64,000 nucleotides of DNA from a virus. Its lineage: Duplodnaviria > Caudoviricetes. The translations under genes were made by a program, and so were the position numbers. Shown here in pieces: positions 13,199-35,316 of the stretch (position 1 is the stretch's first letter; each line of letters opens with the position of its first letter). The stretch is taken from positions 6,786 through 70,785 of IMG/VR virus record IMGVR_UViG_3300031965_000014, one strand, 5' to 3'. The notes beneath the pieces were generated by a model. The model made no database searches, was not told where the DNA came from, and saw nothing but the letters and a program-made list of their open reading frames with translations.

Positions 13199-13425
13199 CA
13201 GGGTGCCAGCGCCTTCAATTCCGCTGCCAGGGCGATCGTGCGCTCCGCATCCGCGATCCTGTTGTCCAACATCTTCTTCATCGCCGCCGGGATGTCTTCG
13301 GGCGCCGTGACCTCGATCAAGGGGGCGAGCTCGGTGTCGATGATGTTGGTGCGGTGGGCATTGAGGATGGTGTACTGCACCGCCCCGCGAACGATTTCCA
13401 GAATGAGGGCTTTCTCGAGGCTCAT
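13198..13425 (-). CDS. Hypothetical protein (75 aa)
   Basis: Coupled at both ends; normal codon usage. Confidence 0.6.
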   Translation of the reverse strand: MSLEKALILEIVRGAVQYTILNAHRTNIIDTELAPLIEVTAPEDIPAAMKKMLDNRIADAERTIALAAELKALAP

Positions 13426-14448: not shown

Positions 14449-14733
14449 TTACTTACCTCTCTGCACTTTGCGCATGTTCTCGAGACGGCCACGGAGATAG
14501 TTCAGGTGGTTGATCTCCGCAGCGGTCAAATTCTCCTTTCGCTCGAGCGCCGCGATCTGCGCGACCAGATCCTCCATCTGCTTGTCGAGCAGGTAGTCCA
14601 CCTGGGCGCCGACCAGCAGGATCTCCTGCTTGCTGGCGAAGTTATCTGCCAAGTAGCCGCGCGCGTGCCAGCCGCCAAACGCGAGCCCGGCGACCAGAAG
14701 GGACAGCAGCCCGGTGAGTAACTTGCTAATCAT
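14449..14733 (-). CDS. Single-TM coiled-coil protein (lysis-associated)
   Basis: N-terminal hydrophobic helix plus coiled coil; adjacent to the endolysin. Confidence 0.6.
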   Translation of the reverse strand: MISKLLTGLLSLLVAGLAFGGWHARGYLADNFASKQEILLVGAQVDYLLDKQMEDLVAQIAALERKENLTAAEINHLNYLRGRLENMRKVQRGK

Positions 14734-17283: not shown

Positions 17284-17293
17284 TGCGTTCTCC

Positions 17294-18022
17294 TTACGAG
17301 ATCGTCAGCGTCCAGGTGATCGTCATGGAATCGGCCGCACCCTTGTTGACCACCGAGAACGTCGACCGATTCGTCATGACGTCCTGGTAGAGCGTCAGCG
17401 TGCCGTTCGCACCTACCGCAGTGGTGTAGAAGGTGAAGGTGTCGGCGGTCGGCACGGTCTGGATCGTCGCCCCGCCGTTCAGGCCGGTGTCGGTCGCCGC
17501 GGCGATGCCGATCGCGCGGTCAACCGCCAGGCCGTGCGTGGTCTTCGTGACCGTCACCGTGTTGGTGGACCTGGTGTACGCCAGGCCGGCGGCGGCCGCG
17601 GCGGTGCCGTTGAAGAGGCCGGCCTCCACCAGAGCGCCGGTGCCAACGCCTGCGGGGAAGGTGCAGACGTAGATGGCCTCGTTGTTGCGCACCGTGGTCG
17701 AGGCGAGGGCCGTTCGGCTGGACCCCACTTCGGCGATAAGCGCTGCCTGCGCGGCGGCCGCCGCGCTGCCGTCGGTGCCAACCGCCATGTGAGTCGGGGC
17801 CGCGGTCGCCACCCCCTTGAGGCGCGAGGCAATTGTGCTCTTGCCGGAATTGACGACCAGGTTCTCGAATTCCCGGCGATCCTTCAGTTTGCCGCGCGGA
17901 TCGAACAGGTCGATGCGCACGTGGCCCCTGATATTGAACGCATCTCGAATGCCGCCCGGGATCTGGCCGAGAGGCACCATGAGGCCCTGTTTGTTTTCGA
18001 TGAATGCGTGGCGTTCGATCAT
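17294..18022 (-). CDS. Virion structural (tail) protein
   Basis: ENLVVNSG..HMAVGT..EAGLFN..VNKGAADSMTITWTL, with an inserted beta domain. Confidence 0.65.
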   Translation of the reverse strand: MIERHAFIENKQGLMVPLGQIPGGIRDAFNIRGHVRIDLFDPRGKLKDRREFENLVVNSGKSTIASRLKGVATAAPTHMAVGTDGSAAAAAQAALIAEVGSSRTALASTTVRNNEAIYVCTFPAGVGTGALVEAGLFNGTAAAAAGLAYTRSTNTVTVTKTTHGLAVDRAIGIAAATDTGLNGGATIQTVPTADTFTFYTTAVGANGTLTLYQDVMTNRSTFSVVNKGAADSMTITWTLTIS

Positions 18023-18032
18023 GTCGTGCCCC

Positions 18033-19028
18033 TTAATTGAGCGTCAGTTCGTTCAGCGTGGCGCCATTGAGAACTGTCGGCTGGATGAGCAGCAGTGAAA
18101 TCAGGTCGCTGGCGGTGATGCTGTCGGTCAACGGCTTGCCCATCTGGACCGCGAGCCAATCCGATGGCATCAGCCAATCGCCCGTATCGCTGTAGTTGAG
18201 AGCCCATTGGTTCAAGGGCGCGCCATTGATGGTGGACGTGACCCCGTCGTGGAGCTCGCGGGAAGAGTTGTGCTCCATCGACATCACATCGATCACCGCC
18301 ACGGAATCCGAGAGCGCCTTTGCAATGCTGTAGGCGAGCGCGTCCAATGTCGCGGTGGAGTCTGCGAGCAATTTCTGAACATGCAAGGAAGCGATTGCGT
18401 CGCTCGAGCTCACTGAATCCGCGAACACCTTTCTGGGCTCAAGGCTGATGTGGTCAGAAGCAAAGAACGTATCCCCGGTGTCGTTGCCGTTGAGTACCCA
18501 CTGATTGAGAAGCGCGCCGTTCAGCGTCGAAGTGATCCCCTCGTGGAGCTCGAGGGAGTAGACAAACTCGAATTCGATCAGGTCGCCCGCCGATACTGCA
18601 TCGGCGATAGATCCCTCGCTCACCTGGAATGGCGTCGCTACATCCAGAATGACGACGAAATCGCTGAGGACCTTTTCAATATCGAACTTGTTGATCTCAT
18701 CGTCGACGACCACAGTATCGAGCGGCGACACGGAACGGACGTGAACGACATCGTCCGTGACCAAGACCACATCAGCGAACTCGAGCTGCCAGATCAGGGA
18801 GCTTTCGACCAGCGATACGAAGGGCTGCCCGTACTCAACGAGCGAGATGACCGCCGCGGCGGGCGCGGCGGCGGCAATGGATGCCGCCGGCGCGACGTGG
18901 GCCGCATAGCGCGGCTTGGACGTCTCGGCCTGGGCTGCCGGGTAAACGACCTCGGCGCTCGCCGCCAGCGTGACCCACGACGCCGTGACGATGGCGGCGG
19001 CTACGGTCGCGCGAAGGCCGGCCCTCAC
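18033..19028 (-). CDS. Virion structural protein with internal repeats
   Basis: Repeated D-x-V/I-x-x-S-D pattern and three LNGxxLNxxxLN motifs. Confidence 0.6.
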   Translation of the reverse strand: MRAGLRATVAAAIVTASWVTLAASAEVVYPAAQAETSKPRYAAHVAPAASIAAAAPAAAVISLVEYGQPFVSLVESSLIWQLEFADVVLVTDDVVHVRSVSPLDTVVVDDEINKFDIEKVLSDFVVILDVATPFQVSEGSIADAVSAGDLIEFEFVYSLELHEGITSTLNGALLNQWVLNGNDTGDTFFASDHISLEPRKVFADSVSSSDAIASLHVQKLLADSTATLDALAYSIAKALSDSVAVIDVMSMEHNSSRELHDGVTSTINGAPLNQWALNYSDTGDWLMPSDWLAVQMGKPLTDSITASDLISLLLIQPTVLNGATLNELTLN

Positions 19029-22635: not shown

Positions 22636-23898
22636 TTACAGCAGCGCCTTACCGGCCGCAGAGTTGGGATCGGGCGCATAGGAGTCGACCACGGCCACGC
22701 CGTGATCGGTGGTCTTCTGCGTTGCCCCCGTGAGCACCAGGAAGCGGTTCTTCGCGCAACCGCCCATCCCGGCGACCGAGGTCTCGACCGCGTTGTCGTG
22801 GTCGACACGCTCCTCGTGCCAGGAATAGTGGTAGTCCGAAGCGCCGTGAATCCCGTATGCCTTGGATTCGGCTTGCGCGCCCATGAGCAGCGCCCTGTCG
22901 GTATCCACCGCGCAGGTTGCCGTCGTCGTCGCGAACACGTCCGCGTTCGTCGCCACCGTCACCACCTCGCCCGCCGCGAAGCGGACAGCGATGCGCTTGA
23001 TGGGCCGAACGAGGATGCCCGCCCAGATCCCGACGTCGCCGAAAAACAGCGGATGCCTGGACCCCTCGAAGCGCTTGTAGGCGTTCGAGAGGAACGTGCG
23101 CCAGGCTTTTTCCCCGGTGCGCGTCTGCAGGTAGTGCCACTGCCTCCACGTGACAAGCAGGAGCCAGATGGGGTCGTCCCACCCGTACTTGTCCTCCTTG
23201 ACCCGGATGGGTTGCAGGGGGACGTCGGACTCGTGCATCGTCGCCGCAAGGCGGTCGATGGTCGGCAGGTCCAGCAGGTCCGCAGAGTCCAGATTCGCGA
23301 GGCCCGTCGCGTCGCCGGCGTAGAAATGCCGGTTGAACGTGGGGGCCAACACCGAATTCACCATGATGCTGGCGAAATCTGGATCGCTCGCAAGAGGCAC
23401 GATCCAGTCGGCGTTGTTCTGGCTACCGCGGGCACCGGCCAGGTGGACGTAGCCGATCTGGTCTTCCATCCTGGTTGCCCAGCCGCCAAGCGACGCCATG
23501 GCGATGCCGCGCAGGTTGTGCACGGTACGCTTCTGGGTCATCCGCCCGCCGGAATCCACACCGCCGCGGTACTGGTCGATGCGAATTTCCATCGTCGAGC
23601 TGGTCAGCGACATCATCTTGCCGGCGATCTTCTTGTCGCCCATCACCGGCTTGCCCTGCACGATGTTGAACAGGTCCACCGAGACGAGATCTCCGGCCCC
23701 CTTGGTGAGGTCGGTGATCTTGACGATCGGGTAATCGGGGCTGGTCTGCCCCTTCAGCTTGGCTTCCGCGTCGGATTGCTTGGGCGCCGGGCCCGAAAGC
23801 AGGTTCATGAACCCGGGCTGCTGCTGCACCGTGGCGAACAGTGCCGCACCGAACACCTTTCTTGCGAGCGGAGAGCCGATTGGGATTTGCGTCGGCAT
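22636..23898 (-). CDS. Major capsid protein (N4-gp56/DUF4043 type)
   Basis: 420 aa; DLTKGAGD.VS.DL..GKPVMGD..GGRMTQKRT.HNLR; downstream of the scaffold gene. Confidence 0.88.
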   Translation of the reverse strand: MPTQIPIGSPLARKVFGAALFATVQQQPGFMNLLSGPAPKQSDAEAKLKGQTSPDYPIVKITDLTKGAGDLVSVDLFNIVQGKPVMGDKKIAGKMMSLTSSTMEIRIDQYRGGVDSGGRMTQKRTVHNLRGIAMASLGGWATRMEDQIGYVHLAGARGSQNNADWIVPLASDPDFASIMVNSVLAPTFNRHFYAGDATGLANLDSADLLDLPTIDRLAATMHESDVPLQPIRVKEDKYGWDDPIWLLLVTWRQWHYLQTRTGEKAWRTFLSNAYKRFEGSRHPLFFGDVGIWAGILVRPIKRIAVRFAAGEVVTVATNADVFATTTATCAVDTDRALLMGAQAESKAYGIHGASDYHYSWHEERVDHDNAVETSVAGMGGCAKNRFLVLTGATQKTTDHGVAVVDSYAPDPNSAAGKALL

Positions 23899-23926: not shown

Positions 23927-24985
23927 TTAGAGCCTCGCCAGTTGCTCCTGGATCTTCTCCGGCGTCATGCCCATGAACCTGTTGCCGATTTCAACGGCCG
24001 AGAGGTTCTCGAGCGATTCCGACGGGGTCGACGGGGGCTTGCCAGCGGGCAGATCGGAAAGCGAATTGGGCGCCGTGGGCTTGGTGCCCGCGACGATCGC
24101 ATCCGCCTTCTCCTGTTCGGTTCTCTTGTCCTCGGGCGATGGGTCGGGCGGGGTGGCAGGCAGACCGATTTCCTGCTTCACGCGCTTGACCACTTCCTTG
24201 TACCGGGCAACGTCGTCTGTCAGAAGCTCGGGATGGGCGTCCATGAACGCCTTGTCCTTGAAGAGATCTCCCTCGACGGCTTGCGCGCGGGCGAAGAGGT
24301 AGGGCGTCTTTTCACGCCATCCCTGCAGCTCCGGCACCTGGCCGATCAGGCTCTCGACTTCGGACTCGACATCCTGAGTACGCTCGCGTTCGGCACTGCC
24401 GATGCGCTTCTCAACGGCATCGAGTTTCCCGATGGCGTGCTTGAAGAGCGCCTGCTGTGCCTCGACGGCCTTGGCGATCGTCGGGAACTCGGACTTGAGC
24501 GTATCCATCAGCTCCTTGGGGAGCTCCATGGTCACGGGCGCATCCGCGGGCTTCGCGCCGCCGGCTTCGAGGGCCTTGATCCGCTCGTTCACTTCGCGGA
24601 TGTTCGCCTCGAGCTGCGTCGCGTAGTCCTCGGCCGCCTTCCTGGCTACCGCTTCGGCTTCCTTGGATTCCGTCGCTTCGTTGATCCGACGTTCCATCTC
24701 CGCGTAGGGGATGACATGCTGGCCGTCCTTGGTGAGCACGCCTTCGATCTTCGGCTCGCCGGCGGGTTTATCCGCGGGCTTGTCGTCGACCTTGGGCTTC
24801 TCGCCGGCGGGCGGCGTATCCCCTGGTGCGTCCGGGTGAGCGGCCTGGTGCGCCTCGAAGAGCTTCTCGATTGCTGCGGCGTCCGTGGGCATCTCGTGCG
24901 GGTGCTCGAGGTAGTAGTCGAGCGTCTTCAGCTCGTCCTTCACCTCGGTCTCCGGGCCGGCCGGTTTATCGGAATTGGTCGTCAT
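23927..24985 (-). CDS. Scaffolding protein
   Basis: Acidic, P/E-rich, with coiled coil; KDG.H.IPY motif; immediately before the capsid gene. Confidence 0.75.
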   Translation of the reverse strand: MTTNSDKPAGPETEVKDELKTLDYYLEHPHEMPTDAAAIEKLFEAHQAAHPDAPGDTPPAGEKPKVDDKPADKPAGEPKIEGVLTKDGQHVIPYAEMERRINEATESKEAEAVARKAAEDYATQLEANIREVNERIKALEAGGAKPADAPVTMELPKELMDTLKSEFPTIAKAVEAQQALFKHAIGKLDAVEKRIGSAERERTQDVESEVESLIGQVPELQGWREKTPYLFARAQAVEGDLFKDKAFMDAHPELLTDDVARYKEVVKRVKQEIGLPATPPDPSPEDKRTEQEKADAIVAGTKPTAPNSLSDLPAGKPPSTPSESLENLSAVEIGNRFMGMTPEKIQEQLARL

Positions 24986-25085
24986 CGCTTGCCTCCATTT
25001 ATCGGATGGGTCCGAAAGGTGTTCCCCGGTGCGTCCGGGTTCGCCGTCGGCTTATCGGCGCCGTGCCGAAACTGCTTCGCTTCGA

Positions 25086-25102
25086 TATACATTACACGCA
25101 TA
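25086..25102 (-). promoter_or_regulatory. Degenerate operator-like 17-mer upstream of scaffold/capsid
   Basis: TATGCGTGTAATGTATA on the minus strand, within an AT-rich intergenic patch. Confidence 0.35.
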
Positions 25103-25121
25103 TCGCTGCGCAAAAAAATGT

Positions 25122-26471
25122 TCATGGTGTGCCGTTCGCCGCCATGGCGAAGAAGTCGTCGTTCACCGCTTCCGAGATGCGGATAGGCAGATAGGTCGGG
25201 GGCGGTCCTGCCTCTCCCCCGAACCCGATCTGCGCGCAGGAGACTGGTGCCCCCGTGCGAATATGCATATTGTCCTCGTACCGGAAGGTCGTCTCGGCGG
25301 TGCCGCTCGGCTCCAGCCCTGAGCCGTCGTTGTTATTGGCGTTCGCATAGGAATTCAGTTGTAGCTGGTTGTAGCCCCCGCTCGCGGCCATGGCGCTCGT
25401 GTCGAGGTTGCTGATGTCGAGGATCAGCTTTTCCGCTACCGTGGCGCTGCCGAACCAGATCCGAATGCGGCTGTTCGTCAGCCCCATATTCTCGAAGTGC
25501 CCTCGCGCACACCCCCACGTCCCGAATGACCAGTCCACCGCTTGGTCGTAGACGCTCGGATCGGCGGCATAGTAGAAGGCCACGTCAGAGCACTCGAATA
25601 CGCCGAGCGTCTGCGTCGCCGCGTTCAGCTTCGTTTGGCAGCCAGACTGGGTCTCATTCCCAAAGCCAGCCTGCTGATAGAGCAAGGCGTGCTTGTCGAA
25701 CGGCGTCGTCTGCGTGGCACCGCTGGGATGGTTATACATAACAAAAAGTGAGTCAGCCTGATCTCCCCACTCATTATGCTTCCAGGCAATGAAAAAGATA
25801 TTGCTCGCGACGACATTGCTGGCGTAGGCAATCGCCATCGTGATCCCGAACGTCCGCCGCGTGCCCCCGAGACTCCGGCCGGAATGAATGTCCGTGGTGT
25901 TCGGAAACCCGCCTTTCACGCGATGGGCGAACGACACTGCGCCATCGAAACTCCCGCTGCCTCCCCCGGCTCGGCCGCTTGGTGGGGTAATCGACGGCAC
26001 TTCGACGTTGTAATCAGAATCACGCATCATGGCGATGCCGGTGCCGGTCACAGCCTGCCAGCGGTTCGTGGCGTCCCAGGCCCCCGCATTGCACGTCCCA
26101 GCCCCGCCAGTGTCACAGGTACAGCCCAGGGTTGGGCTCGAGGGTTGACCCTCCGGCCAGTGGTCGCCACCGCCGCCCGCATTCATATCGCTCCACACTT
26201 GGCGGAAGTAGGAATTGAAGCCCCGGAAACACGTGAATCCGCCGCCTGTCTCGTCGTACCAGGGACCGTAGTACGGGGCTCCGTTGCCGACCCCTTGGTC
26301 ATTGACCAGCGTCGGAGCTTCCCAGTCCTCGCAGACGAGTAGCGCCGTGTCGTTCAGGTCACCACCCTGCACGCGGTCGCAGTAGCAGTCCACGCCCTTG
26401 GTGCAGGAGGCCGCACTACCGAACTCCGGTAGCAGCGCAAGGATCGTGGCGAGGAGCAGAGTGCGCATCAT
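25122..26471 (-). CDS. Signal-peptide Cys-rich protein, jelly-roll/polysaccharide-lyase-like (449 aa)
   Basis: MMRTLLLATILALLPEFGSA signal peptide, TAATG-coupled to the upstream gene; CEDWE..WGCARGHF..RIRIW..FRYEDN..C pattern. Confidence 0.6.
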   Translation of the reverse strand: MMRTLLLATILALLPEFGSAASCTKGVDCYCDRVQGGDLNDTALLVCEDWEAPTLVNDQGVGNGAPYYGPWYDETGGGFTCFRGFNSYFRQVWSDMNAGGGGDHWPEGQPSSPTLGCTCDTGGAGTCNAGAWDATNRWQAVTGTGIAMMRDSDYNVEVPSITPPSGRAGGGSGSFDGAVSFAHRVKGGFPNTTDIHSGRSLGGTRRTFGITMAIAYASNVVASNIFFIAWKHNEWGDQADSLFVMYNHPSGATQTTPFDKHALLYQQAGFGNETQSGCQTKLNAATQTLGVFECSDVAFYYAADPSVYDQAVDWSFGTWGCARGHFENMGLTNSRIRIWFGSATVAEKLILDISNLDTSAMAASGGYNQLQLNSYANANNNDGSGLEPSGTAETTFRYEDNMHIRTGAPVSCAQIGFGGEAGPPPTYLPIRISEAVNDDFFAMAANGTP

Positions 26472-27355
26472 TATTGCGTCCAGTGAGTAGGCCGATTGGC
26501 GTTCCACCACGCCGGTTCGTGGCCAGCGCCGCTTTTGTCCGAGATGTCGCTCGCGTCGGCTGGGTTCATGTTCAAGTACCACAGCCCCGGGATGCTGTTC
26601 GCGGTGACCGCTGCGAGTACGTCAGCATCGGTCTCCAGCGCCTCCAGGATATTGATCTGCGTCGTCGTCAGCAGCGCGTTGTAAATCTGGATGCCCCGCA
26701 GCACGCCGTTCGCCCGTTCCGCGCTCGGATTCCAGGGTGCGTCTGCAAAAGTCAGCGCAGGCGAGGGCGGCGTCTGGTTGCCCCACGTGCTCGCCGTAGC
26801 GTGCGTCACCAGCGCGGTTGTCAGGTCTGGCAGGTTCCAGTAATACTCGTGGTTCTTGACCGCGCCGTTCGCACCCCAAGAACGAAACGCCTGGGAGTAC
26901 CAGACATCCTTTACCACTGGCTCCGTATCTACGGTGTCGGTGTTTTCTACGGCAATTTCCCATAGATGGTCGGTATCGAACCCGGTGAAGTCTTCCGGGA
27001 ACGGATGGGCACCGTAGTAGGTATCTGGGAAGCCACTATCCCACTCGAACGTGGCGGCGTTGCCGATGCCGTCGTCGTTGCCCCAGAAGAAGCAGGTGTA
27101 GTAGCCGGTTTGTTGGCGCGGCCTGTACTTCCACAGGTAGGTCACCCCAGCGCCGTCCGTGCCGTAGATCGGGATCAGGGCAGCGCCCGTAAATCTGAAC
27201 CGCACGCTCGCGTCATTGTCCAGCGACCCCAGGTTGCTGGGAAAATCCAAGCCGCTCAACTGCTGCTCAACGCTGACCGTGATGGGCAGGTACGTCGTCT
27301 GCGGCAGCGCAACCACAGCGTAGACTGACAGCAGGATGGCGGCGAGCAGCCTCAT
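26471..27355 (-). CDS. Signal-peptide ConA/LamG-like protein (294 aa)
   Basis: MRLLAAILLSVYAVVA; ..NGVLRGIQIYNALLT..WYLNMN is a LamG-like end. Confidence 0.6.
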   Translation of the reverse strand: MRLLAAILLSVYAVVALPQTTYLPITVSVEQQLSGLDFPSNLGSLDNDASVRFRFTGAALIPIYGTDGAGVTYLWKYRPRQQTGYYTCFFWGNDDGIGNAATFEWDSGFPDTYYGAHPFPEDFTGFDTDHLWEIAVENTDTVDTEPVVKDVWYSQAFRSWGANGAVKNHEYYWNLPDLTTALVTHATASTWGNQTPPSPALTFADAPWNPSAERANGVLRGIQIYNALLTTTQINILEALETDADVLAAVTANSIPGLWYLNMNPADASDISDKSGAGHEPAWWNANRPTHWTQ

Positions 27356-28203
27356 GGTTGATCGTCGTCCAGGGTCAGGATGTCGAAATTGTCGGTGACC
27401 ATCTGCTGAGTGAATGCCTCAGCGTAAATTGCGGCGTAGAACAGCGCGCCGTCGAACGAACGGTCGAAGGAACCACCGGAGTCGCGGTTGAACGCGATCA
27501 GGTCAAGGTCGGCGGCGAGGGCGAGGGTTTCGTTGAGTCCCACGTTGTCGCCGATGCCCGTCAGATCCAACGCACCGTTGATGTAGACCCGGATGCGGTT
27601 GGTCGCGGTGCCCTGCGTGCTGTCGAGCACGATATGGACCACGACGCGGGCCGTGCCGATGTTCGCGGATTCGGGGGAGGAAACGTCGTTGAACGACAGG
27701 TTGAGCGCGGTATTGACGTCGTTCGGCGCCTTGACTATTAACTCGCCATCGCTGCCAGCACGGTCGTTGATGCCGAAAACGCGCCCGCCGTTGCTGTTGC
27801 CGGCGTCCAGGCGCAGCACCAACTCGATGGTGGCCTGCGTGACGCCAGCCAGTGCGTCCCTCACCGCGTCCGAAGTGTTGTCGATCGCGCGCATTGCGCG
27901 CTGCGTGCCGTTCACGCTTATGCTATCCAGAGCGCGCATGCCTGCGGCGGGCTCGGCGTAGGCCATGTTGCCCGCACCGTAGTTGATGGTGGTCAGGTCG
28001 TAGCTGTTGCCGCTCCTGTCCACCACGGCAGTCGGGCCGGTCCCCGAGGCCGCTTCGTCGACGTAGTAGCGGACGACCGGCGTGCCGACGAGGCTCGGGC
28101 CACCTCCTGGCGCGGGGTGGAACGCCGGGCCGTGGAAGACCTGCGCGCTCGAGCTGAGCGCGAAGGCGAGTGCGAGGAAGCCGAGGAAGAGGCGGCGCTT
28201 CAT
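27352..28203 (-). CDS. Signal-peptide ConA/LamG-like protein (283 aa)
   Basis: MKRRLFLGFLALAFALSSSA|Q; ATIELV..HIVLD..RIRVYING..FDGALFYAAIY. Confidence 0.65.
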   Translation of the reverse strand: MKRRLFLGFLALAFALSSSAQVFHGPAFHPAPGGGPSLVGTPVVRYYVDEAASGTGPTAVVDRSGNSYDLTTINYGAGNMAYAEPAAGMRALDSISVNGTQRAMRAIDNTSDAVRDALAGVTQATIELVLRLDAGNSNGGRVFGINDRAGSDGELIVKAPNDVNTALNLSFNDVSSPESANIGTARVVVHIVLDSTQGTATNRIRVYINGALDLTGIGDNVGLNETLALAADLDLIAFNRDSGGSFDRSFDGALFYAAIYAEAFTQQMVTDNFDILTLDDDQP

Positions 28204-28295
28204 CGCGGACGCTCCTGCTTGGGGAATGGCCACGGCGGCGGGAGTCCAAGCACCTTGCGCACGAGTCGCTTCATCCACCAGATCAGCGTACTCAT
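28200..28295 (-). CDS. 31-aa micro-ORF (MSTLIWWMKRLVRKVLGLPPPWPFPKQERPR)
   Basis: ATGA overlaps at both ends, exactly filling the gap between two large genes. Confidence 0.5.
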   Translation of the reverse strand: MSTLIWWMKRLVRKVLGLPPPWPFPKQERPR

Positions 28296-31090
28296 TGCGT
28301 CTTCGTGTAGCGCAGGGTCACGTTGAGAACGGTGCTGTTCACCGTGCTGGCATCTTCCGTGGCGTCGCCGTCGCGCGCGAGTCTGATGCGCCATGTCTGC
28401 CCGGCGGTGAGCGCAGCGCCCCATCCAGTCAGCGTCGTGAACGCCACGCTCTCCACGTCGCCGCTTGCGCCCGAGCCGTCACCGGCGAAGTCGAGGTTGA
28501 TCGCGGTCGCCAGCGTGCTCGCGGTCGGCACTGCGCTGTCGGCCACGCTCACCGTGCTGAGCACGTAGCGATGCGTGGCTGTGTCTGCGGCGCCGAGCAG
28601 GAACTTGATGCTCCCCGCGAGCTCAACGCCGGTGTTCAGGTCATCCGGCACCCTGATGTACCACTCGACGTAGTTCGCAGCGAGGTCCGCCGAGTTGCTG
28701 CACGTCGGCCTGCCGTAGCCGATGGCCGTCGAGGTCGTGCCCACCGTGCAGCCGGTGCCGTCTACCAGGTCGGGATGCGTGAGCTGGATGTAGCCGAGCT
28801 GCGTGAGGATGTTGCCGGTGCCAGCCGCGTCCAGCGTCTTGTTGGTGAAGGTGGCGGTGTCCGAGGCGTAGGCCGTGAACTCCGTTTGCACGTAGGCCGT
28901 AGTGGCGACCGATGTATCGTTGTCGTTCGCGGCGGGCGTGGTAGCGGTGGCCGCACCCACGTCGCCAGCTTGGAATAGGAGCGCCCCCGTACCGGACTCG
29001 TCCGTAACGATGGCCCGCAGCTCCGCACTGGTGTCTATGTCGGCCGAGGAGAGCGCGCCGCCGGCAGCAGTCCCATCCCCTAGCTTCACCCAAGCCGCGC
29101 CGTCGAACTGGCACAGGCTCGTGACTGAGCCAGCGGCCGAATCGCAGGCGCCCGCCGTGCTGTCGTCGGTGACGATTACCACATCGCCAGCCGTAGGAGT
29201 GCCAGGGAAGGCCGTCACGCGAGGCAGCCGCAGGAACGACGTGTGGATCGAGCCGGAGAGCGTCGGCCCCGTAGCGAGCGCGATGCCGCCAGTGCCGGTG
29301 ACGTTCTGGCCAAGAGCGGTAGCAACGCCTGTGCCGAAGGCCGTGATGCCGGTGCCTCCATTGGCGACCGGCAGCGTGCCCGAGACTGCAGCTGCCAATG
29401 CCACTTGGGCGCAGGTAAGGTTCCCGCTCGCCGCGATGGTCGTCGCAAAGCGATCAGCGGCGCAGTCGGTCGGATCGGCCGCCAGCGCGGTGGCGGTCGC
29501 CACATTGCCAGAGGTCAGTGCCACAGTGCCGGTGGTAGCTGGAAACGTGGCCGTGACGGTGCCCAGAGCGCCTGTCGTCGGGGCCAACGTGATGCTTCCC
29601 GAGGTAACGTTGCTAAGCTGCACACTCCCAACGCTCACGCCGGCCACGCCGAGTTGGATCTGCGAGGCGCCGTCACTGGTCAGGCCAGCCACAGTCTCGG
29701 GCCCAAAGCCGGTTCCGCCTCCAATGACTAGGCCATTGTTAGCGAGTGCGGCGCTGGACGAGATGTTCGTGCCATCAGTCCAGATAGCGCCGCCGCTGGT
29801 GAGCGCGCCCGAAAGTGGCGCGAGGTTCGACGCCGTGACCGTGCCAGTGATCGTGGCATTGCCGCCGACGGACAGGTCGCCGACCCCGCTCACGTCGTCG
29901 AGGTCGTTGATGGCGATGCCGCTGTTCTGCACGCCGCGCGAGGTGCCGTCGGAGCGCACCAGCACGTTGTCGGTGGCGAAGGTCGAGGTAGCCGTGACAG
30001 CGGTGGCGCCGCCTCCAGCCGTGCCGTCGCCGATCGATACCCAGCTCGAGCCGTTCCACTGACACCAGCTCCGTGCGCTCCCCGCCGCGCTATCGCAAGC
30101 TCCAGCTACCGAGTCGTCGGTGATGATGACGATATCGCCGCTCGCGGGCGTTCCAGGGAAGGCCGCGACGCTCGGCGCGTTGAACTTGGTTGTGAGCACC
30201 GCCGAGTCGATGGTGGGAGCGGTGCCGAACACCAGCAGGCCAGAGCCCGTCTCGTTGGTGAGCGTCGCCGCCAGGTTCGCGCTGGTAGCCGCTCCCCACC
30301 ACGTTGCCATGCCGGAGGCGAGGCTCGTGACCCCGGTGCCACCGTTGGCAGCAGGAAGGGTGCCGGTGACTTCGCTCGCAAGATTTACCGCCGCTCCGCC
30401 CTCACAAGCCCCGGAGGCATCGATGCCGCGCGGCAGGAGGCCCGCACCGCAGTTTGCAGGGTTGGCAGCGAGGGCTGAAGCAAGCCCTGCTGTCAAGCTC
30501 GCCGCCGTGCCGCCAGCGTTGGTGAGGGTGATGCTCGATGGAGTGCCGCCAGCGCCGTTGAAGAGCACGGGCGCGCCCGCGCTGCCCACGTTGATCGCGA
30601 GCGCCGTGTCGATCCCGACTCCAAGGCCGGTGATGCCCGCCAGGGGCGCGGCCCCAGCGGTGAGTCCGGCCGCCGTGCCGGAGATGTTCGTGCCTACGAG
30701 GGCCGAGGGCGTGCCGGCGTCGCCGTTCTGGAAGTAGAGCGCTCCCGTGCCGGTTTCGTCCGTCAGAATAGTGCGCAGTTCGGACGAGGTATCGATGTCC
30801 GTCGAGACAAGCGTGCCGCCCGCGGCCTGGCCATCGCCAAGCGAAGCCCAGCCAGAGCCGTTCCAGCGGCAGAGCGTGACAGCGCTGCCGGCAGCGCTAT
30901 CGCACGCGCCCTGCACAGAATCATCGGTGACGACGACGATTTGCCCGAGAGACGGATTCACCGGCAAGGCTGTGACGCTGTCGATGAGAGTTCCGCCAGC
31001 GGCGCCTGCAGCCGGCGTGACGGTGACGCCCTGGGCGAGCGCGGCGCCGGTGGCAAAGAGGAGTGCGATGAGAAGGGCGAGCCGTTTCAT
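28292..31090 (-). CDS. Signal-peptide fibre-like protein with triplicated Cys-pair modules (932 aa)
   Basis: MKRLALLIALLFATGAALA|Q; GTLP(V/A)ANGGTG twice and DNDTSVATTAYVQ, typical of phage fibres. Confidence 0.7.
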   Translation of the reverse strand: MKRLALLIALLFATGAALAQGVTVTPAAGAAGGTLIDSVTALPVNPSLGQIVVVTDDSVQGACDSAAGSAVTLCRWNGSGWASLGDGQAAGGTLVSTDIDTSSELRTILTDETGTGALYFQNGDAGTPSALVGTNISGTAAGLTAGAAPLAGITGLGVGIDTALAINVGSAGAPVLFNGAGGTPSSITLTNAGGTAASLTAGLASALAANPANCGAGLLPRGIDASGACEGGAAVNLASEVTGTLPAANGGTGVTSLASGMATWWGAATSANLAATLTNETGSGLLVFGTAPTIDSAVLTTKFNAPSVAAFPGTPASGDIVIITDDSVAGACDSAAGSARSWCQWNGSSWVSIGDGTAGGGATAVTATSTFATDNVLVRSDGTSRGVQNSGIAINDLDDVSGVGDLSVGGNATITGTVTASNLAPLSGALTSGGAIWTDGTNISSSAALANNGLVIGGGTGFGPETVAGLTSDGASQIQLGVAGVSVGSVQLSNVTSGSITLAPTTGALGTVTATFPATTGTVALTSGNVATATALAADPTDCAADRFATTIAASGNLTCAQVALAAAVSGTLPVANGGTGITAFGTGVATALGQNVTGTGGIALATGPTLSGSIHTSFLRLPRVTAFPGTPTAGDVVIVTDDSTAGACDSAAGSVTSLCQFDGAAWVKLGDGTAAGGALSSADIDTSAELRAIVTDESGTGALLFQAGDVGAATATTPAANDNDTSVATTAYVQTEFTAYASDTATFTNKTLDAAGTGNILTQLGYIQLTHPDLVDGTGCTVGTTSTAIGYGRPTCSNSADLAANYVEWYIRVPDDLNTGVELAGSIKFLLGAADTATHRYVLSTVSVADSAVPTASTLATAINLDFAGDGSGASGDVESVAFTTLTGWGAALTAGQTWRIRLARDGDATEDASTVNSTVLNVTLRYTKTQ
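29072..30976 (-). repeat. Three 49-codon repeats at ~30830-30976, ~30023-30169 and ~29072-29218
   Basis: Each encodes V.A.P..P..G..V..TDDS..GACDSAAGS....C.(W/F).G..W...GDG. Confidence 0.85.
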
Positions 31091-31091
31091 G

Positions 31092-31409
31092 TCATTGCCC
31101 CATGTCGAGGGACACCGCAGCATCGGTGCCCGTGAGGTTTCGCACGGTGCCGCGCACGAACCGCCAGGGCGCATCGCTCGCGAAGCCACCGTTGGCCGTG
31201 GTGGTGCTGAGCACGAGGTTGATGGTCGCGATCAGGGTCCAGTTCTCGCCGTCGTTCGAGCCTTCGACGTCGACGTCCGCGGTGCCGGCGCCGGCGCTCG
31301 TCAGGCCGTTCGCCTGAAAGGTGCGCTTCGCGCCCAAGGGCTGGAATGCCTGCCCTGAGCCGTTCGCAATGACCCCGTCGAGCAGTTTGTAGATCCGTCC
31401 TTCTCTCAT
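31092..31409 (-). CDS. Small beta-sandwich protein (paralogue of 21868-22182)
   Basis: DVEGSNDGENWTLI..WRFVRGTV motif. Confidence 0.65.
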   Translation of the reverse strand: MREGRIYKLLDGVIANGSGQAFQPLGAKRTFQANGLTSAGAGTADVDVEGSNDGENWTLIATINLVLSTTTANGGFASDAPWRFVRGTVRNLTGTDAAVSLDMGQ

Positions 31410-31416
31410 GGCAGCC

Positions 31417-33777
31417 TCACTTCTTCGTGTTGGCGGGCGACGTGACTTTTTTCTCGAGCTTGTCGATGCGCTTGCCGACTTTCTCCTCGATACCCTTCAG
31501 CGCCTTTTCGATCTTTTCGTTCATGCCGGCGACTGCCTCGGCCTTCTGGCGCTCCATGCTGGCGATCGCGATCTTCGCGCCGGCATCCAGGCGGGCCCGG
31601 TACTCGTCGGTTCCAGCACGGGTGTCGGCCTCGTGGATCTTCGATTTCATGGCGGCCTGCAGGGAGTCGATCTTCGCCTGCAGCTTGCGCACCTCTTCCT
31701 GCGCCTCTTCGATGACCTGCTGGACCTGCTTTTGCACCTCGGCGAGGGCATCGGGCGAGATCTCGCCCTCGCCCTCCTGGCCCATGGTGTCGATCTCGCG
31801 CTGCAACTTCTCGCCCTCGAGCTCGGCGTTTCGGACTTCGGCCTCTTCGGCGCGGCGCATGAGCTCGGCCTTCCTCTGCTGCTCGGCCTTCTCGCCCTCC
31901 TGCTTGGCGGCCTCCTCCTTGTTGCGCGGCTTGTGGGAGCCCTGCAGGCCCAAGTGCTGTCGGATGCGCTCGCCGATCTGGCGCCGTTGCGGCAGGTCCG
32001 TCGCCTCGATGATGAAGTCCGAGATCAGGGCCTTCATCTCGTCGGGCAGGCCCTTGGTGAACTCGGTGAGGTGCGCGAGCTGCCCGGCGCGGAAGGTCGG
32101 GGTCGAGGGCACGTCGTCCAGGACAAGCGAGACGCCGGCGCGGATCACGTCGTTCTTGACGTAGGCGCCGAACTCGTCGGTTGCGTCCTCGTTCAGCGTC
32201 ACCTCGTGGCGCTGCATGCCCTCTCCCACCGTGACGGTGGTGCCGTTGGCGATGTCCTCGCGCACGTTCTCCATCAGGATGGCGCCCACCTGGCGCCGCG
32301 CGTAGCGGAAGTTGTCGTTGATCTCGGCGAGGGTCGTCGTGCCCTGCTCGATGAGAGAGTTGATGGCGATGCCGGACTCGGCCTTCGACTCTTTTCCGAG
32401 AAGCGCCTGGTAGACGCCGGCGACGTCCTGCAGGGATTGCTTCGCGTTCTCGTAGATCTTGAACTGCTGGTCCGAGAGCTGCAGGTTGTCCTGGATCTCG
32501 AACTTCGATGTTGGCTTTCTGTGGGCGTTGAGGACGATGTAGGCATCCGCCCGCGCGACCTCGCGCCGTACCTCCTCGTGATCGAGCACTGCATCGTGGT
32601 CGACGACGACCTGCTTGGAGGAGAGCAGCCACATCATCTTTTGCTTGCGGGCGTTGATCTCGTCTTGCTGGTCGCGCATGTTGCGGATGAGCCCGTAGGG
32701 CGCGCTCGAGCGGTCCTCCCGGTAGCCGAAGAACGGCACGTAGGGGAAGAAGTGGTGCTTGTAGGGGCTGGGCACGTCGATCAGGCGGTGCGGACCGATC
32801 CAGAACGACAGGCGCACCTTCGGCACCGGAAGAATCTGCGGCACGATCAACCCTTGCGCCACCGCGGCGACGTGCAGGCGGTTTTTCCGGTCGTATTCCA
32901 CCCAGCGCCCGTCCGGGAGGTGCAGCATCGGCAGCGCCTTCCAGGTGCGATACCAGATCTCGTAGACGCAAAGACGTTTGCGCAGGTAGTCGCGGAACTC
33001 GTATTCCTCGATCGCGGTCGCGCGCTCGACGTCCCAGGCGGCGGCGAGGCCCGTGTCGCTCGAGCGCATCACGTCGTCCCACCAGCCAGACCACTGGTTT
33101 CCGATCATCTCGATCAGCTTTTCGTGGCGCGGGAACATGGCTTTCACTACGTCCTCGTCGAACCACTGCCGGCGAACTAGGTAGCGCCAGTCGGAGGTGT
33201 CGGGTTCCTTGCCGCGCCAGTCCCATGCGATCTCTCGCCGGTGCACGTAGCGCACGCGGTACGGATAGCGGTACGGGACGATCTCGCGCGAGACTTCGAC
33301 CCACCCGAGGCCCACCTTGATCTGGGGCGCGTAGGCGTCGGAACAGGCTTTGTCGGCGTGGCCCTCGCGCTCGGCTTCCTTCATCTTCACCGACATCGCC
33401 TGGGCGACTTCCTCCCACTGGTCGTTGTCGTGCTTGACGATCCAGTCGGTGCGCGTTTTTGCCTCGAGCCCGAGCACCGCGTCGATCGTCGGGCGGCAGA
33501 GGTTCTCCTTGATGGCCGGGAAACCCTTCAGGCGCAGCTTTTCGAGGATGTCGGCGGTGAGCTGGTGCCCGTCGTAGTAGTCGGCGTCGATGTCGCACTG
33601 CCGGCGCCAATCTGGTTGCTCGCGGATCTCCTGCAGCCAGGTTTCCAGCGTCTCGAGTTTGAGGGCTTCCTTGTCGGGCGTGGCGTAGTCGTGGCCGTGC
33701 GAGGTTGAATCGACCGGGCGCGCCGGCACGCGCATTCGCGCGAGCTGGCTTTTCAGCGGTATGACCTGGGCGGCCAT
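31417..33777 (-). CDS. Portal protein (P22-like)
   Basis: 786 aa; DADYYDGHQL..EN..PTIDAVLG.E..FPYVPF..YGLIRNMRD.Q.EIN; C-terminal coiled coil; follows terL. Confidence 0.9.
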   Translation of the reverse strand: MAAQVIPLKSQLARMRVPARPVDSTSHGHDYATPDKEALKLETLETWLQEIREQPDWRRQCDIDADYYDGHQLTADILEKLRLKGFPAIKENLCRPTIDAVLGLEAKTRTDWIVKHDNDQWEEVAQAMSVKMKEAEREGHADKACSDAYAPQIKVGLGWVEVSREIVPYRYPYRVRYVHRREIAWDWRGKEPDTSDWRYLVRRQWFDEDVVKAMFPRHEKLIEMIGNQWSGWWDDVMRSSDTGLAAAWDVERATAIEEYEFRDYLRKRLCVYEIWYRTWKALPMLHLPDGRWVEYDRKNRLHVAAVAQGLIVPQILPVPKVRLSFWIGPHRLIDVPSPYKHHFFPYVPFFGYREDRSSAPYGLIRNMRDQQDEINARKQKMMWLLSSKQVVVDHDAVLDHEEVRREVARADAYIVLNAHRKPTSKFEIQDNLQLSDQQFKIYENAKQSLQDVAGVYQALLGKESKAESGIAINSLIEQGTTTLAEINDNFRYARRQVGAILMENVREDIANGTTVTVGEGMQRHEVTLNEDATDEFGAYVKNDVIRAGVSLVLDDVPSTPTFRAGQLAHLTEFTKGLPDEMKALISDFIIEATDLPQRRQIGERIRQHLGLQGSHKPRNKEEAAKQEGEKAEQQRKAELMRRAEEAEVRNAELEGEKLQREIDTMGQEGEGEISPDALAEVQKQVQQVIEEAQEEVRKLQAKIDSLQAAMKSKIHEADTRAGTDEYRARLDAGAKIAIASMERQKAEAVAGMNEKIEKALKGIEEKVGKRIDKLEKKVTSPANTKK

Positions 33778-35316
33778 TTACATCCCCGTGCGCCAGTCAT
33801 CGGGATCGGGCGGCGGGCGCGTGATGCCGCGGCGCTGCGGAACCTGGAAGCGGTGCGCGAAGGTGAGCGCCGCTCCCCAGAATCCATCGGGGGATTTCAA
33901 TCCCCTCTTTTTCATGTGCTTCGAGGACTCGACGATGATGCGCATGCTCGAATCCTTGCTAACGGTCGGGCCGGTGAGATCCTGCTGTAGCTCGTTGGAA
34001 TCGGCGATGCGGTTCGGCTTGTCGTCGAACCACAGCTTCATGTCGAAGGCCATTTCGTCGCGGCGGCCCTTGTAGAGCGCTTCCTCGAAGGCTTTTTCGC
34101 CGAAGTGCACGCGAATTACCGGCAGGCCCAGCTCGAGCAGGCGATCGGCTGGCCCTGTACCGACGCCGGTCACGTCGACCATGAGCGCCATGGGCTTCGG
34201 TTCGGGCTCCTTGTCGTACTCGACGGCGACTTTGCCGACGAGGTCCATGGGGCCGACCTTCGCCCAATACTTCGAGTCGTAGATCACGCGGCCCTGGCGC
34301 CTGCAGAGGTTCGAGCGATCGTCGCCGTACTCGGCGACGTCCAGGCCCCACAGTTTCGGCGCGTTCGGGTCCGGCGTGATCTTGGAGTTGCGGGCGGCCG
34401 CCACCAGGATCGGCTTGATGAGCGTGTCCGGGCTCGAGGAGAGGAAGGCGTGCTCGGGCGTGGCCGGATATTCCTGGTCGAACTGCTGGATGTCGCCCTG
34501 AAAGTCGTCGCGGATTTTCAGGCGCCGGAAATACATCTGCTCGGCGTCGAGGTTTAAGGCTTCGGCGTACTCGATCTCGTCGGCGTCGAGCACGAAGTCC
34601 GCGGGCGGCGTACGGCGGTACTCTGTGGACCAGAACCAAGGCGTGAAGATGGGGATGTAATCGCCCTCGCCCGCGGTCGCGATCTGCCAGCCCTCGTGAA
34701 ACGGATTGCCGATGCCGAATGCGGTCGATTCATAGATGATCTCGGTGTCGTCCTCGTTCGGGACGGTCTGGCCGATGCCGGCGAGGTGGTCCTTGGCGTT
34801 GGGCCAAAAAGCCATTTCGGAGCCGTGAAAGAGCTGCACGGTGGCCGAGCGCCCGGCGCCCTTGGTGCCGGCAGTCGCGACGAGGTAGCCCGAGTCCAGG
34901 CGATCGAAGTAGAGCTCCTTGGCGGAAGCGTTGCCGGCGTGGGGCTTCAATTCCTGTGGCAGCTTCTCGTAGTAGCGGTTGACGATCTCGAACAGGTTGT
35001 CGGTCGCCTGCTGCTCGTGGGTGAGGATGGCGGCGCGCAGTCCGAAGCCGGTGACGGTCTTGCGGAAGTGCCGTGAGGTGATGTAGGTGGATGCCCCCTG
35101 CTGGCGTCCTTTCAACCAGTAGGCGCGCACGCGGCCGATGCGCGCGCGCTGGTCCTCGAGCATGCGGTGGCCGAAGAGCTGAGGGGCGTTGAGCTTGAGC
35201 GGGATGATCTTGCCGTTCTTCACCCTGATCTGCATGCAGCGCTCGGCGTACTTGGCGTGGTCGGCGAGGACCTCGTCGAAGATTTCGTGATCGGTGCGCA
35301 GGGCCAGGGATGCCAT
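33778..35316 (-). CDS. terL: Terminase large subunit
   Basis: LKGRQQGAST Walker A, FHGSEMAFW Walker B, YESTA motif, GLDVA nuclease motif. Confidence 0.92.
   Translation of the reverse strand: MASLALRTDHEIFDEVLADHAKYAERCMQIRVKNGKIIPLKLNAPQLFGHRMLEDQRARIGRVRAYWLKGRQQGASTYITSRHFRKTVTGFGLRAAILTHEQQATDNLFEIVNRYYEKLPQELKPHAGNASAKELYFDRLDSGYLVATAGTKGAGRSATVQLFHGSEMAFWPNAKDHLAGIGQTVPNEDDTEIIYESTAFGIGNPFHEGWQIATAGEGDYIPIFTPWFWSTEYRRTPPADFVLDADEIEYAEALNLDAEQMYFRRLKIRDDFQGDIQQFDQEYPATPEHAFLSSSPDTLIKPILVAAARNSKITPDPNAPKLWGLDVAEYGDDRSNLCRRQGRVIYDSKYWAKVGPMDLVGKVAVEYDKEPEPKPMALMVDVTGVGTGPADRLLELGLPVIRVHFGEKAFEEALYKGRRDEMAFDMKLWFDDKPNRIADSNELQQDLTGPTVSKDSSMRIIVESSKHMKKRGLKSPDGFWGAALTFAHRFQVPQRRGITRPPPDPDDWRTGM

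Follow-up and report, generated by a model that had tools for sequence, protein, structure and literature searches.

An uncultured, short-tailed phage with a genome of 70.8 kb and 65% GC carries, between its portal gene and a scaffold-like gene, four consecutive minus-strand genes (A, B, C and D) whose products all begin with what appear to be genuine bacterial export signals. The genes occupy a cargo hotspot as an inserted block, and such cassettes are swapped between sister phages. Because all four proteins bear export signals, their maturation is expected outside the cytoplasm, the compartment in which phage particles are built. The explanation that we favor, and to which we give roughly an even chance, is that the cassette is a late, Sec-exported, disulfide-stabilized, glycan-targeting module that is released at lysis and horizontally exchanged as an accessory block. 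Literature searches returned no description of such cassettes.

An insertion site between portal and scaffold

Coordinates (Table 1) refer to the window, the whole stretch of 64,000 nucleotides that was analyzed. The sequence-only reading had placed four translationally coupled genes between portal and scaffold. Their number, lengths (932, 283, 294 and 449 aa) and position hold, and coupling is supported by overlaps between B and C (ATGA) and between C and D (TAATG), but A and B lie 88 nt apart, with a GGAG preceding B. The scaffold-position gene is homologous to the CF418P1 gene between portal and capsid and is followed downstream by the gene for the major capsid protein (phrog_334). A single base separates A from a 105-aa ORF that was absent from the gene list of the sequence-only reading. 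This ORF matches phrog_16217 (E 1.5e-6) and, below threshold, Pfam F5/8 type C (E 0.005-0.007), and may encode a small sugar-binding-type beta-sandwich.

Table 1. Cassette genes, their flanks and the canonical fiber gene, in window coordinates
Feature	Position	Strand	Remarks
Portal gene, left flank of insertion site	31417-33777	-	phrog_156, E 2.8e-153
105-aa ORF	31092-31409	-	between portal and A; no signal peptide
A, 932-aa fiber-like protein	28292-31090	-	predicted Sec signal, fiber repeats
B, 283-aa probable LamG/ConA-like protein	27352-28203	-	predicted Sec signal
C, 294-aa protein, function not assigned, maybe LamG-like	26471-27355	-	signal-like N-terminus
D, 449-aa Cys-rich ConA-type jelly-roll protein	25122-26471	-	predicted signal, structure model
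AT-rich 136-nt spacer, D to scaffold-like gene	24986-25121	-	conserved right boundary of swappable block
Scaffold-position gene, right flank of insertion site	23927-24985	-	phrog_479
Canonical tail fiber gene without signal peptide, outside cassette	16369-17283	-	phrog_8469, E 3e-26

The 6.3-kb block has been inserted at a hotspot for cargo genes. The portal gene of CF418P1 and LKA5 is immediately followed by those for scaffold and capsid, and among 53 relatives portal and capsid lie 1.1-1.3 kb apart in 22 cases and 3.6-7.8 kb apart in 15. GC3 is 0.74-0.81 in the cassette genes versus 0.82-0.90 in the portal, scaffold and capsid genes. At the same site two relatives encode signal-less proteins, an 818-aa Ig/Hoc-like one (L177) and a tail-fiber-PHROG one (L193).

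Cassette swapping is seen directly in the sister phage L150, whose portal is 94% identical. L150 retains the 105-aa ORF (95% identical) and A (76%), and in place of B, C and D it encodes three different signal-bearing proteins. The 5' part of A keeps ~90% nucleotide identity, its distal parts and the partner genes differ, and identity resumes at 25187; the last ~13 residues of D and its 3' flank are shared with the unrelated enzyme that takes D's place in L150. The cassette recurs in other phages: a similar fiber-plus-D form is present in the unrelated long-tailed phage L011 and in L114.

The cassette is apparently transcribed as part of the late operon. Consensus scans of the coding strand from 24500 to 34000 detected no promoter- or terminator-like site, which is weak evidence in a genome of 65% GC, and the junctions between the cassette and the late genes are tight. 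Since the block has no promoter or terminator of its own in these scans and is tightly joined to late genes, it is unlikely to be expressed in a lysogen or in early infection.

We also considered a lambdoid moron and rejected it on the same two observations, that the consensus scans found no promoter- or terminator-like site on the coding strand and that the late-gene junctions are tight. Like the cassette, the lambdoid morons (lambda lom, bor) are exported, lie in or beside virion genes and are horizontally acquired at module junctions. Each of them, however, is one small gene under a promoter and terminator of its own that is expressed in the lysogen, whereas the cassette comprises four genes, has no detected promoter or terminator of its own, and encodes a fiber-like and an enzyme-like product.

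Export signals and their conservation

As read from the sequence, the N-termini of A, B, C and D each combine basic residues, a hydrophobic core and a small-residue cleavage motif; our criteria were a basic n-region, a hydrophobic core of 10-15 residues and small residues at -3/-1. Cleavage is predicted at ALA/QG in A (signal MKRLALLIALLFATGAALA/QG), SSA/Q in B (MKRRLFLGFLALAFALSSSA/Q), VVA/LP in C and GSA/AS in D. A crude genome-wide scan, based on a hydrophobicity, charge and cleavage-site script with a GC2 filter, flagged B, C and D; A, which displays the same features by eye, was dropped solely by the GC2 filter. Beyond the cassette, the scan flagged seven short ORFs (55-159 aa). Two are probable lysis genes (14449-14733 and the lipobox-bearing 13422-13820), and four of the seven are encoded on the strand that does not carry the late operon.

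The sequence-only reading had named true starts past the hydrophobic segments as an observation that would undo its proposal. In A, B and D any such in-frame start truncates the conserved mature domain. C also begins with a signal-like N-terminus, but could start at a downstream TTG (codon 33 or 36).

Signals were found in 87 of the 119 best A relatives (from more than 1300 homologues), in 79 of 119 C relatives (from 426 homologues) and in 36 of 150 B relatives (from 758 homologues), the remaining 114 B relatives being without one. The nearest homologues of C (70-83% identical) also have no signals. Homologues of D carry variable signals or lipoboxes immediately ahead of a conserved CTxGxDCYCD. 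In the D and A families, and in the majority of C relatives, the position of the signal is kept, its sequence is not, and the mature domain follows directly. Signal-bearing relatives of A have a median of 11 cysteines (86% with even counts) versus 1 in signal-less relatives. One accessory protein has a signal in L114 and none in L009; the two versions are 72% identical, and the L009 protein starts at the predicted cleavage site. Because of this family-wide conservation and the cysteine statistics the export signals appear genuine, in agreement with the Sec-type signal peptides initially ascribed to all four genes.

Modules and folds of the four products

By its sequence, A is a fiber-like protein that shares repeat modules with phage fibers. 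It is made up of a two-Cys beta domain of ~50 aa that is present three times, fiber repeats and a C-terminal domain that differs among relatives in the alignment; only the three small domains are confidently predicted in its structure model. The fiber motifs (GTLPVANGGTG and DNDTSVATTAYV) and paired cysteines reported earlier are present, with 12 cysteines in six local pairs. The description of D as Cys-rich is likewise correct (12 cysteines), and B has no cysteine and C one. The repeats of A recur in signal-less phage fiber-like proteins and in viral contigs, with 484 related stretches in the latter. No tail-fiber N-domain of PHROG or Pfam matches A, whereas the canonical fiber of this phage matches phrog_8469, phrog_30299 and phrog_25788, in each case within its N-terminal domain.

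The layout of A resembles that of the MAT (mosaic adhesive trimer) fibers of Bdellovibrio bacteriovorus, which are exported adhesins (Caulton et al. 2024, PMC10769870). Both have a signal, a conserved beta-rich N-terminal domain, a long shaft like that of phage tail fibers and, at the C-terminus, a binding tip that can be exchanged. However, MATs are encoded by chromosomal genes of a predatory bacterium and shown on its own surface, whereas A belongs to the late operon of a phage, and the MAT N-terminal domain spans ~130 aa, whereas that of A is a repeated two-Cys module of ~50 aa. No solved chain, MAT fragments included, matched an A-family profile in sequence.

B and C are probable sugar-binding proteins. 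B is probably LamG/ConA-like, with the domain at residues ~43-283; its family is mostly signal-less. It matches PF13385 clusters in the Atlas (feature score 0.98; TM 0.66-0.73 with the Atlas's own model) and has a marginal match only among PDB sequences. C may be LamG-like, with weaker support than B: its Atlas match (feature score 0.97) comes from language-model features alone and it has no sequence match in the PDB. Thus the ConA/LamG look that had been attributed to two of the smaller proteins probably applies to B and more tentatively to C. In Pfam neither protein matches PF13385 at E <= 0.1, and their profiles are unrelated to each other. The C family is bacterial, occurs on contigs of up to 915 kb and is mostly exported (Sec, lipoprotein or Tat).

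The structure model of D (pLDDT 83.5) shows a ConA-type jelly roll that comes nearest to PL14, PL36 and PL20 polysaccharide lyases, and with the match to 5gmt it bears out the jelly-roll or lyase-like fold suspected from the sequence. Against 5gmt, the PL14 enzyme AkAly30 of Aplysia, Foldseek gives E 7e-8 and VIA a Z of 13.3, with an rmsd of 3.5 over 231 aligned residues. Over all fold matches the values are E 7e-8 to 1e-5, Z 13.3-11.5 and rmsd 3.4-3.7 over 213-231 residues. The jelly roll is shared with the Chlorella virus PL14 lyase vAL-1 (3a0n/3gne), the PL36 lyase Aly36B (6kcv) and a PL20 glucuronan lyase (2zzj), but D is ~200 residues longer, carries a Cys-rich N-terminal extension and is 8-12% identical to these enzymes, the likeness being one of fold alone. 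GH131, GH16, Cip1 and calnexin come close to the lyases in score, and ConA-type folds also occur as pure lectins. D has no Pfam, NCBIfam or PHROG match, and its sequence does not place it in a CAZy PL family. Within the D family K231, E234, D400 and H403 are invariant and R83, R184, R397 and Y398 nearly so. D is of bacterial origin, from polysaccharide-synthesis clusters: its bacterial homologues sit among GT4, polysaccharide deacetylase, Acetyltransf_6, GDSL and Wzy_C/PEP_O_lig_1 genes.

Where the exported proteins may act

We envision that Sec carries the four products to the periplasm of the host, which is presumed to be diderm solely on the grounds of a lysis-region lipobox protein and of relatives that infect Proteobacteria. 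Their signals would be cleaved there, A, with its six Cys pairs, and D, with its 12 cysteines, would form disulfides, and B and C would be exported alongside A and D to end up in one compartment with them. Lysis would release the whole set. Outside the cell D could cut or modify host surface polysaccharide, B and C could bind, and A could serve as a fiber with a variable binding tip, the four proteins cooperating free of the particle. We infer co-export because B, which lacks cysteines and comes from a mostly signal-less family, bears a signal here. Autonomy from the particle is suggested by the presence of a similar fiber-plus-D cassette in the long-tailed L011 and in L114 and by the canonical signal-less fiber that this phage already has.

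The cassette would be strain-specific and swappable like phage receptor-binding/depolymerase modules, with the core particle built without it. Those modules also combine fibers with glycan-active enzymes, are exchanged between close relatives and vary at the C-terminal tip. In contrast to the cassette, their known examples have no signal peptide and are assembled in the cytoplasm via an N-terminal particle-binding domain; all cassette members are Sec-signaled, A has paired cysteines, no anchor domain is recognizable, and the genes lie in the head-gene region.

Alternatively, A, perhaps carrying B, C and D, could fold oxidatively in the periplasm and dock on the finished head, neck or tail only once lysis mixes the compartments; we regard this, the main inference of the sequence-only reading, as possible, if on the unlikely side. 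Pick-up by virions is a live rival because relatives encode signal-less proteins at the same site and because the cultured Cellulophaga phage phi10:1 (KC821618) has proteins with signal-like N-termini (gp091-094) that are annotated as structural by MS/MS. The position of the cassette inside a structural operon and the sharing of A's repeats with signal-less fibers are consistent with docking, and L150 keeps the 105-aa ORF and 5' A and swaps distal parts and partners as receptor-binding modules do. In its conserved 5' part A is reminiscent of receptor-binding proteins, whose anchor end is likewise conserved, and this likeness, together with the signal-less fiber-, tail-fiber- and Ig-like genes at the site, argues for attachment. 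However, the mature N-terminus of A has no recognizable virion-attachment domain and no match among 50,697 GenBank phages, and its N-terminal Cys domain is found in phages of different tail types. The fiber-plus-D cassette in L011, the canonical fiber and the derivation of D from bacterial polysaccharide loci also count against docking, and if docking occurred only after lysis B would need no signal. In phi10:1, as in the cassette, consecutive late tailed-phage proteins with signal-like N-termini lie beside a glycan lyase (pectate lyase gp095), but this distant phage has a Bacteroidota host, the block lies at the tail end, virion presence comes from an annotation note that may reflect co-purification, and the likeness is one of arrangement, with no sequence relationship expected. 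The broader proposal of an extracytoplasmic branch of tailed-phage assembly, in which Sec-exported disulfide fibers and lectin or enzyme partners pre-assemble in the periplasm, dock on completed capsids or tails only at lysis and are swapped as ready-made cassettes, seems to us rather doubtful.

The alternative offered by the sequence-only reading, in which the target is the infected or lysogenic cell, is improbable; the proteins would then serve as surface-displayed adhesins, in receptor masking or superinfection exclusion, or as a periplasmic enzyme that remodels or blocks the cell's own polysaccharide export. Exported envelope proteins encoded beside structural genes have a precedent in lambda lom and bor, the phage looks temperate, judging by its F116- and Stx-phage-like portal, and the bacterial relatives of D belong to polysaccharide-synthesis loci, where periplasmic lyases and hydrolases act on nascent polymer. 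However, a cell-surface decoy fits poorly with apparently purely late expression, a 932-aa fiber with a variable tip would be odd as an exclusion factor, and Sec alone does not put proteins on a diderm cell surface.

Finally, that the hydrophobic N-termini are uncleaved membrane anchors, or the starts lie elsewhere, and the proteins are ordinary cytoplasmic virion parts is very improbable: the signal-less homologues nearest to C, those of B and the TTG codons in C point this way, but later starts in A, B and D remove conserved residues, small-residue motifs are present at -3/-1, signal and cysteine count co-vary across the A family, and the D family is exported throughout, lipoprotein variants included.

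Four genes with predicted Sec signals in the late operon

The phage is represented by a single 70,785-bp virus record of about 65% GC, of which the window covers bases 6786-70785. Its late operon runs from the terminase and portal through the cassette region to the scaffold-position gene, the capsid, further structural genes, the internal virion protein and a giant ORF. The closest cultured relatives by portal similarity are Achromobacter phage CF418P1 (44%), the Pseudomonas F116/LKA5 group and Stx2 phages, which are short-tailed and largely temperate; because the portal relatives are of these types, an N4-like identity was dropped. The cassette genes, A to D, lie where the sequence-only reading had placed them. 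Its proposal that they are translationally coupled held in part. Three junctions are tight: A starts with an ATG at 31090, 1 base past the stop of a 105-aa ORF, B and C overlap in ATGA, and C and D in TAATG. Between A and B lies a short spacer of 88 nt, and B starts at 28203, preceded by GGAG. The 105-aa ORF, missing from the original gene list, has sub-threshold similarity to F5/8 type C domains.

Positions in the window of the cassette and of other late genes
Feature	Position	Strand	Remark
Large terminase	33778-35316	minus	first of the listed late-operon genes
Portal	31417-33777	minus	phrog_156, E 3e-153
A	28292-31090	minus	932 aa
B	27352-28203	minus	283 aa
C	26471-27355	minus	294 aa
D	25122-26471	minus	449 aa
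Scaffold-position gene	23927-24985	minus	phrog_479
Major capsid protein	22636-23898	minus	phrog_334
Canonical tail fibre	16369-17283	minus	no signal; T7-type N-domain
Small protein	14449-14733	minus	N-terminal membrane segment
Small protein	13422-13820	minus	lipobox (LGGC)
Internal virion protein	11147-13486	minus	phrog_511
Acetyltransferase-like ORF	10378-10851		near the giant ORF; phrog_1249
Giant ORF	3-8117 and beyond (genome 3437-14902)	minus	up to 3822 aa; closes the late operon

As first proposed, all four products begin with a Sec-type N-terminus when read in sequence: basic residues lead into a hydrophobic core, which ends in a cleavage motif of small residues. Any in-frame start past the hydrophobic segment would, in A, B and D, cut conserved residues of the mature domain; for C, the overlap with B favors the annotated start, with a downstream TTG as a possible alternative. 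B, C and D were picked up in a genome-wide scan that applied a crude rule based on hydrophobicity, charge and cleavage; A has the same features and was dropped by the script's GC2 filter alone. Since the scan otherwise flagged only seven short ORFs (55-159 aa; four on the strand opposite to the late operon, and two of the seven probable lysis genes, one with a lipobox), the run of four long genes with predicted signals is not a matter of chance. A PEP-CTERM tag was rejected for A-D, none of which has a C-terminal transmembrane segment.

Family comparisons provide what we consider the strongest evidence that the predicted signals are real. Nearly all of the approximately 100 metagenomic homologues of D carry a variable signal peptide, some with a lipobox, and the signal or lipobox directly abuts an invariant mature start, CTxGxDCYCD. 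The A family comprises more than 1300 homologues, with signal-like N-termini in 87 of the best 119; those of the remaining 32 resemble the N-termini of phage tail fibres. The mature part of signal-bearing A relatives has a median of 11 Cys, with even counts in 86%, against a median of 1 in signal-less relatives, and A itself has six local Cys pairs (63/74, 214/229, 332/343, 543/560, 649/660 and 781/797). Such co-variation is what real export and oxidative folding would be expected to produce. Next to D homologues, an accessory protein has a signal in locus L114 (5561-6241) and none in L009 (11318-11986; 72% identity), the signal-less start coinciding with the predicted cleavage site. In the B family, 114 of the best 150 relatives have no signal; B itself bears one and contains zero Cys. 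Members of the C family are mostly predicted to be exported, via Sec, lipoprotein or Tat-like signals, and the family, found on contigs of up to 915 kb, is bacterial.

Folds and origin of the cassette proteins

Searches of A-D against Pfam, PHROGs and NCBIfam gave nothing significant, and megablast and tblastn searches with the region and with A-D gave no match in 50,697 GenBank phage records. The model of D (pLDDT 83.5) is a ConA-type beta-jelly roll whose best fold matches are the PL14 alginate lyase 5gmt, PL36 Aly36B and PL20 glucuronan lyase, with GH131, Cip1, GH16 and calnexin close behind. For 5gmt, the Foldseek E is 7e-8, and the VIA alignment spans 231 residues with Z 13.3 and an rmsd of 3.5. 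Four residues, K231, E234, D400 and H403, are invariant in the D family, accompanied by near-invariant Arg and Tyr residues, and this conservation suggests a candidate active site. B is probably LamG-like: its feature score is 0.98, and the model that the Atlas itself provides reaches a TM of 0.66-0.73 against PF13385 clusters. Its profile had a sole, marginal match among PDB sequences, to Aly36B (E 0.048). C may be LamG-like, with feature-based support (score 0.97), and its profile matched no PDB sequence; a comparison with hhalign gave no relationship between the profiles of B and C.

The monomer model of A is poor (pLDDT 44), as would be expected for a trimeric fibre, and collagen-like and fibre-like BFVD matches to this full-length model were given no weight for that reason. 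Its confident parts are three two-Cys beta domains of about 50 aa each (residues 35-88, 305-352 and 623-672), with the consensus FPxxPxxGDxVVITDDSxxGACDSAAGSxxxLCxWNGSxW, for which there is no Pfam model. The domain follows the signal in 17/17 signal-bearing fibres of one alignment (A2), and not all signal-bearing relatives among the best 119 carry it there. In the aligned family, the signal and the two-Cys domain come first, then the fibre repeats, and last a globular C-terminal domain that varies among members. This layout most closely resembles that of the Bdellovibrio MAT fibres, which consist of a signal, a conserved N-domain, a fibre and a variable tip (PMC10769870), with no sequence relationship to solved chains detected. 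Homology to the solved MAT fragments is not supported, the A-family profile having no hit among PDB sequences at E <= 1.

Homologues of D, a family with no Pfam or NCBIfam model, occur inside polysaccharide-synthesis clusters in bacterial MAGs (Myxococcota, Deltaproteobacteria, Spirochaetaceae and others) and on many metagenome contigs. Bacterial loci in which these clusters are conserved include L003, L006, L092, L093, L106, L107 and L125. Neighbors in L003 and L006, identified with Pfam and NCBIfam, are a GT4 glycosyltransferase, a polysaccharide deacetylase, Acetyltransf_6 and GDSL proteins and a Wzy_C/PEP_O_lig_1 ligase; N-terminal motifs alone point to asparagine-synthase-like and YdjC-like neighbors in further loci. 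Neither A nor C was found in five of the MAGs in which D lies in such a cluster, a weak negative that had no positive control. With its homologues in such clusters and A and C not found there, D looks like an exported bacterial polysaccharide-locus enzyme captured by phages.

Recurrence of the module and exchange at the portal-scaffold junction

Modules of similar gene content recur in unrelated phages. In L011, whose portal belongs to phrog_21 and capsid protein to phrog_371 and which also encodes a tape measure protein, the cassette lies between head and tail genes and comprises a signal protein of 112 aa, an A-like fibre of 996 aa that bears a signal, a second signal protein of 247 aa, a D homologue and a third signal protein of 131 aa. 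In L114 and L113, D is accompanied by an A-like fibre and two signal proteins, one of 226 aa and the other, Ig-like, of 137 aa. In L004 and L094, D is fused to further domains and occurs with a fibre-like protein and a signal-bearing one of about 250 aa. L012 and L026 encode a signal-bearing fibre with further signal proteins, and in L012 this set comes after a canonical signal-less tail protein. In L026 (IMGVR_UViG_3300020045_011308, 9929-13728), a phage of 45% GC, the signal-bearing fibre has 680 aa and precedes two signal proteins. GC3 in its fibre and signal genes is 0.56-0.57, well above the 0.30-0.40 of their neighbors, which suggests that they were recently acquired.

CF418P1 and LKA5 have their scaffold and capsid genes immediately after the portal. 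Among 53 IMG/VR portal relatives, portal-to-capsid distances fall into three groups, 1.1-1.3 kb (22 loci), 1.5-2.6 kb (16 loci) and 3.6-7.8 kb (15 loci), and these mark the portal-scaffold junction (window 24986-31416) as a cargo hotspot in this phage group. The cassette block itself is a mobile insertion and resembles tail-fibre and depolymerase cassettes in its evolutionary behavior; GC3 is 0.74-0.81 in its genes and 0.82-0.90 in portal, scaffold and capsid. Cargo in the other relatives compared (L150-L229) is mostly signal-less. Besides an 818-aa Ig/Hoc-like repeat protein without a signal in L177, it includes recurrent ORFs of about 90 and about 130 aa. L193, L195 and L198 each have a protein in the range 411-441 aa there, the one in L193 with matches to tail-fibre PHROGs.

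The sister phage L150 (IMGVR_UViG_3300011425_000004, 70.5 kb) matches the window at the protein level in terminase (91% identity), portal (94%), the 105-aa ORF (95%), A (76%), the scaffold-like protein (88%) and capsid (99%). It has no B, C or D, and at their place encodes three different proteins with signals (276, 249 and 580 aa; 15585-18903). We read beta-helix-like repeats in the 580-aa protein, a reading supported by a sub-threshold DUF5123 hit. Nucleotide identity extends from the terminase to about 600 nt inside A and resumes 65 nt before the stop of D. D and the 580-aa protein, with unrelated bodies, have in common the tail DDFFAMAAN(G/S)TP and the following spacer. A scar of recombination and a peptide with a docking function are both possible explanations of this tail. 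The differences between the two phages are modular exchange as at receptor-binding or depolymerase loci.

Release at lysis or docking on virions

We favor, with about an even chance of being right, a model in which A-D would constitute an exported, periplasm-matured, glycan-targeting module that is set free at lysis. The main rival, close to the idea put forward in the sequence-only reading, is that the cassette products dock on virions after lysis; we hold this to be possible and distinctly less probable. A link to the virion is suggested by the position of the cassette within the structural operon, by the genes for Ig/Hoc-like and tail-fibre-like proteins without signals that occupy this site in relatives, and by the conservation, between the sister phages, of the 105-aa ORF and of A in its 5' part. 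Similarly, in the cultured Cellulophaga phage phi10:1 (KC821618; 5848-12879), gp091-094 and the pectate lyase gp095 have signal-like N-termini (e.g. MKKILLLLLFISASLSAQT), and gp091-094 are annotated 'structural protein ... experimental MS/MS'. However, the window phage already has a canonical signal-less tail fibre, A has no recognizable attachment domain, and its N-terminal domain also serves phages with different tails, all of which argue against A as an ordinary fibre, as does the acquired signal of B, which suggests that the partners must meet in the periplasm. A lysogen-expressed moron or exclusion factor is less likely, since no promoter- or terminator-like site was found on the cassette coding strand in scans that are weak at 65% GC; by this criterion the block also differs from a lambdoid moron.

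Tailed-phage fibres and depolymerases are taught to be cytoplasmic and signal-less, and our full-text literature searches found no description of Sec-signal-bearing tailed-phage fibres. The cassette departs from the textbook as a whole kit of fibre, lectin and enzyme with predicted Sec routing, a departure backed by the family-wide co-variation of signals and paired Cys, the apparent capture of a polysaccharide-locus enzyme and the exchange of kits between sister phages. Assembly would include an extracytoplasmic step if the kit joins the particle. Should the kit act free, phages would release purpose-built, oxidatively folded glycan-degrading complexes at lysis, which would matter for how phages spread in biofilms and for predicting host range from genomes. 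Either way, a signal peptide is no ground for excluding genes from receptor-binding or depolymerase annotation in phages. The window contributes a head-module insertion site, the putatively captured enzyme, Cys-versus-signal statistics and a sister-phage pair with swapped payloads that amounts to a natural swap experiment.

The lipobox protein and the small protein with an N-terminal membrane segment, neither of which had a match in a Pfam scan, are probably the products of spanin or lysis genes, and this putative pair suggests that the host is diderm.
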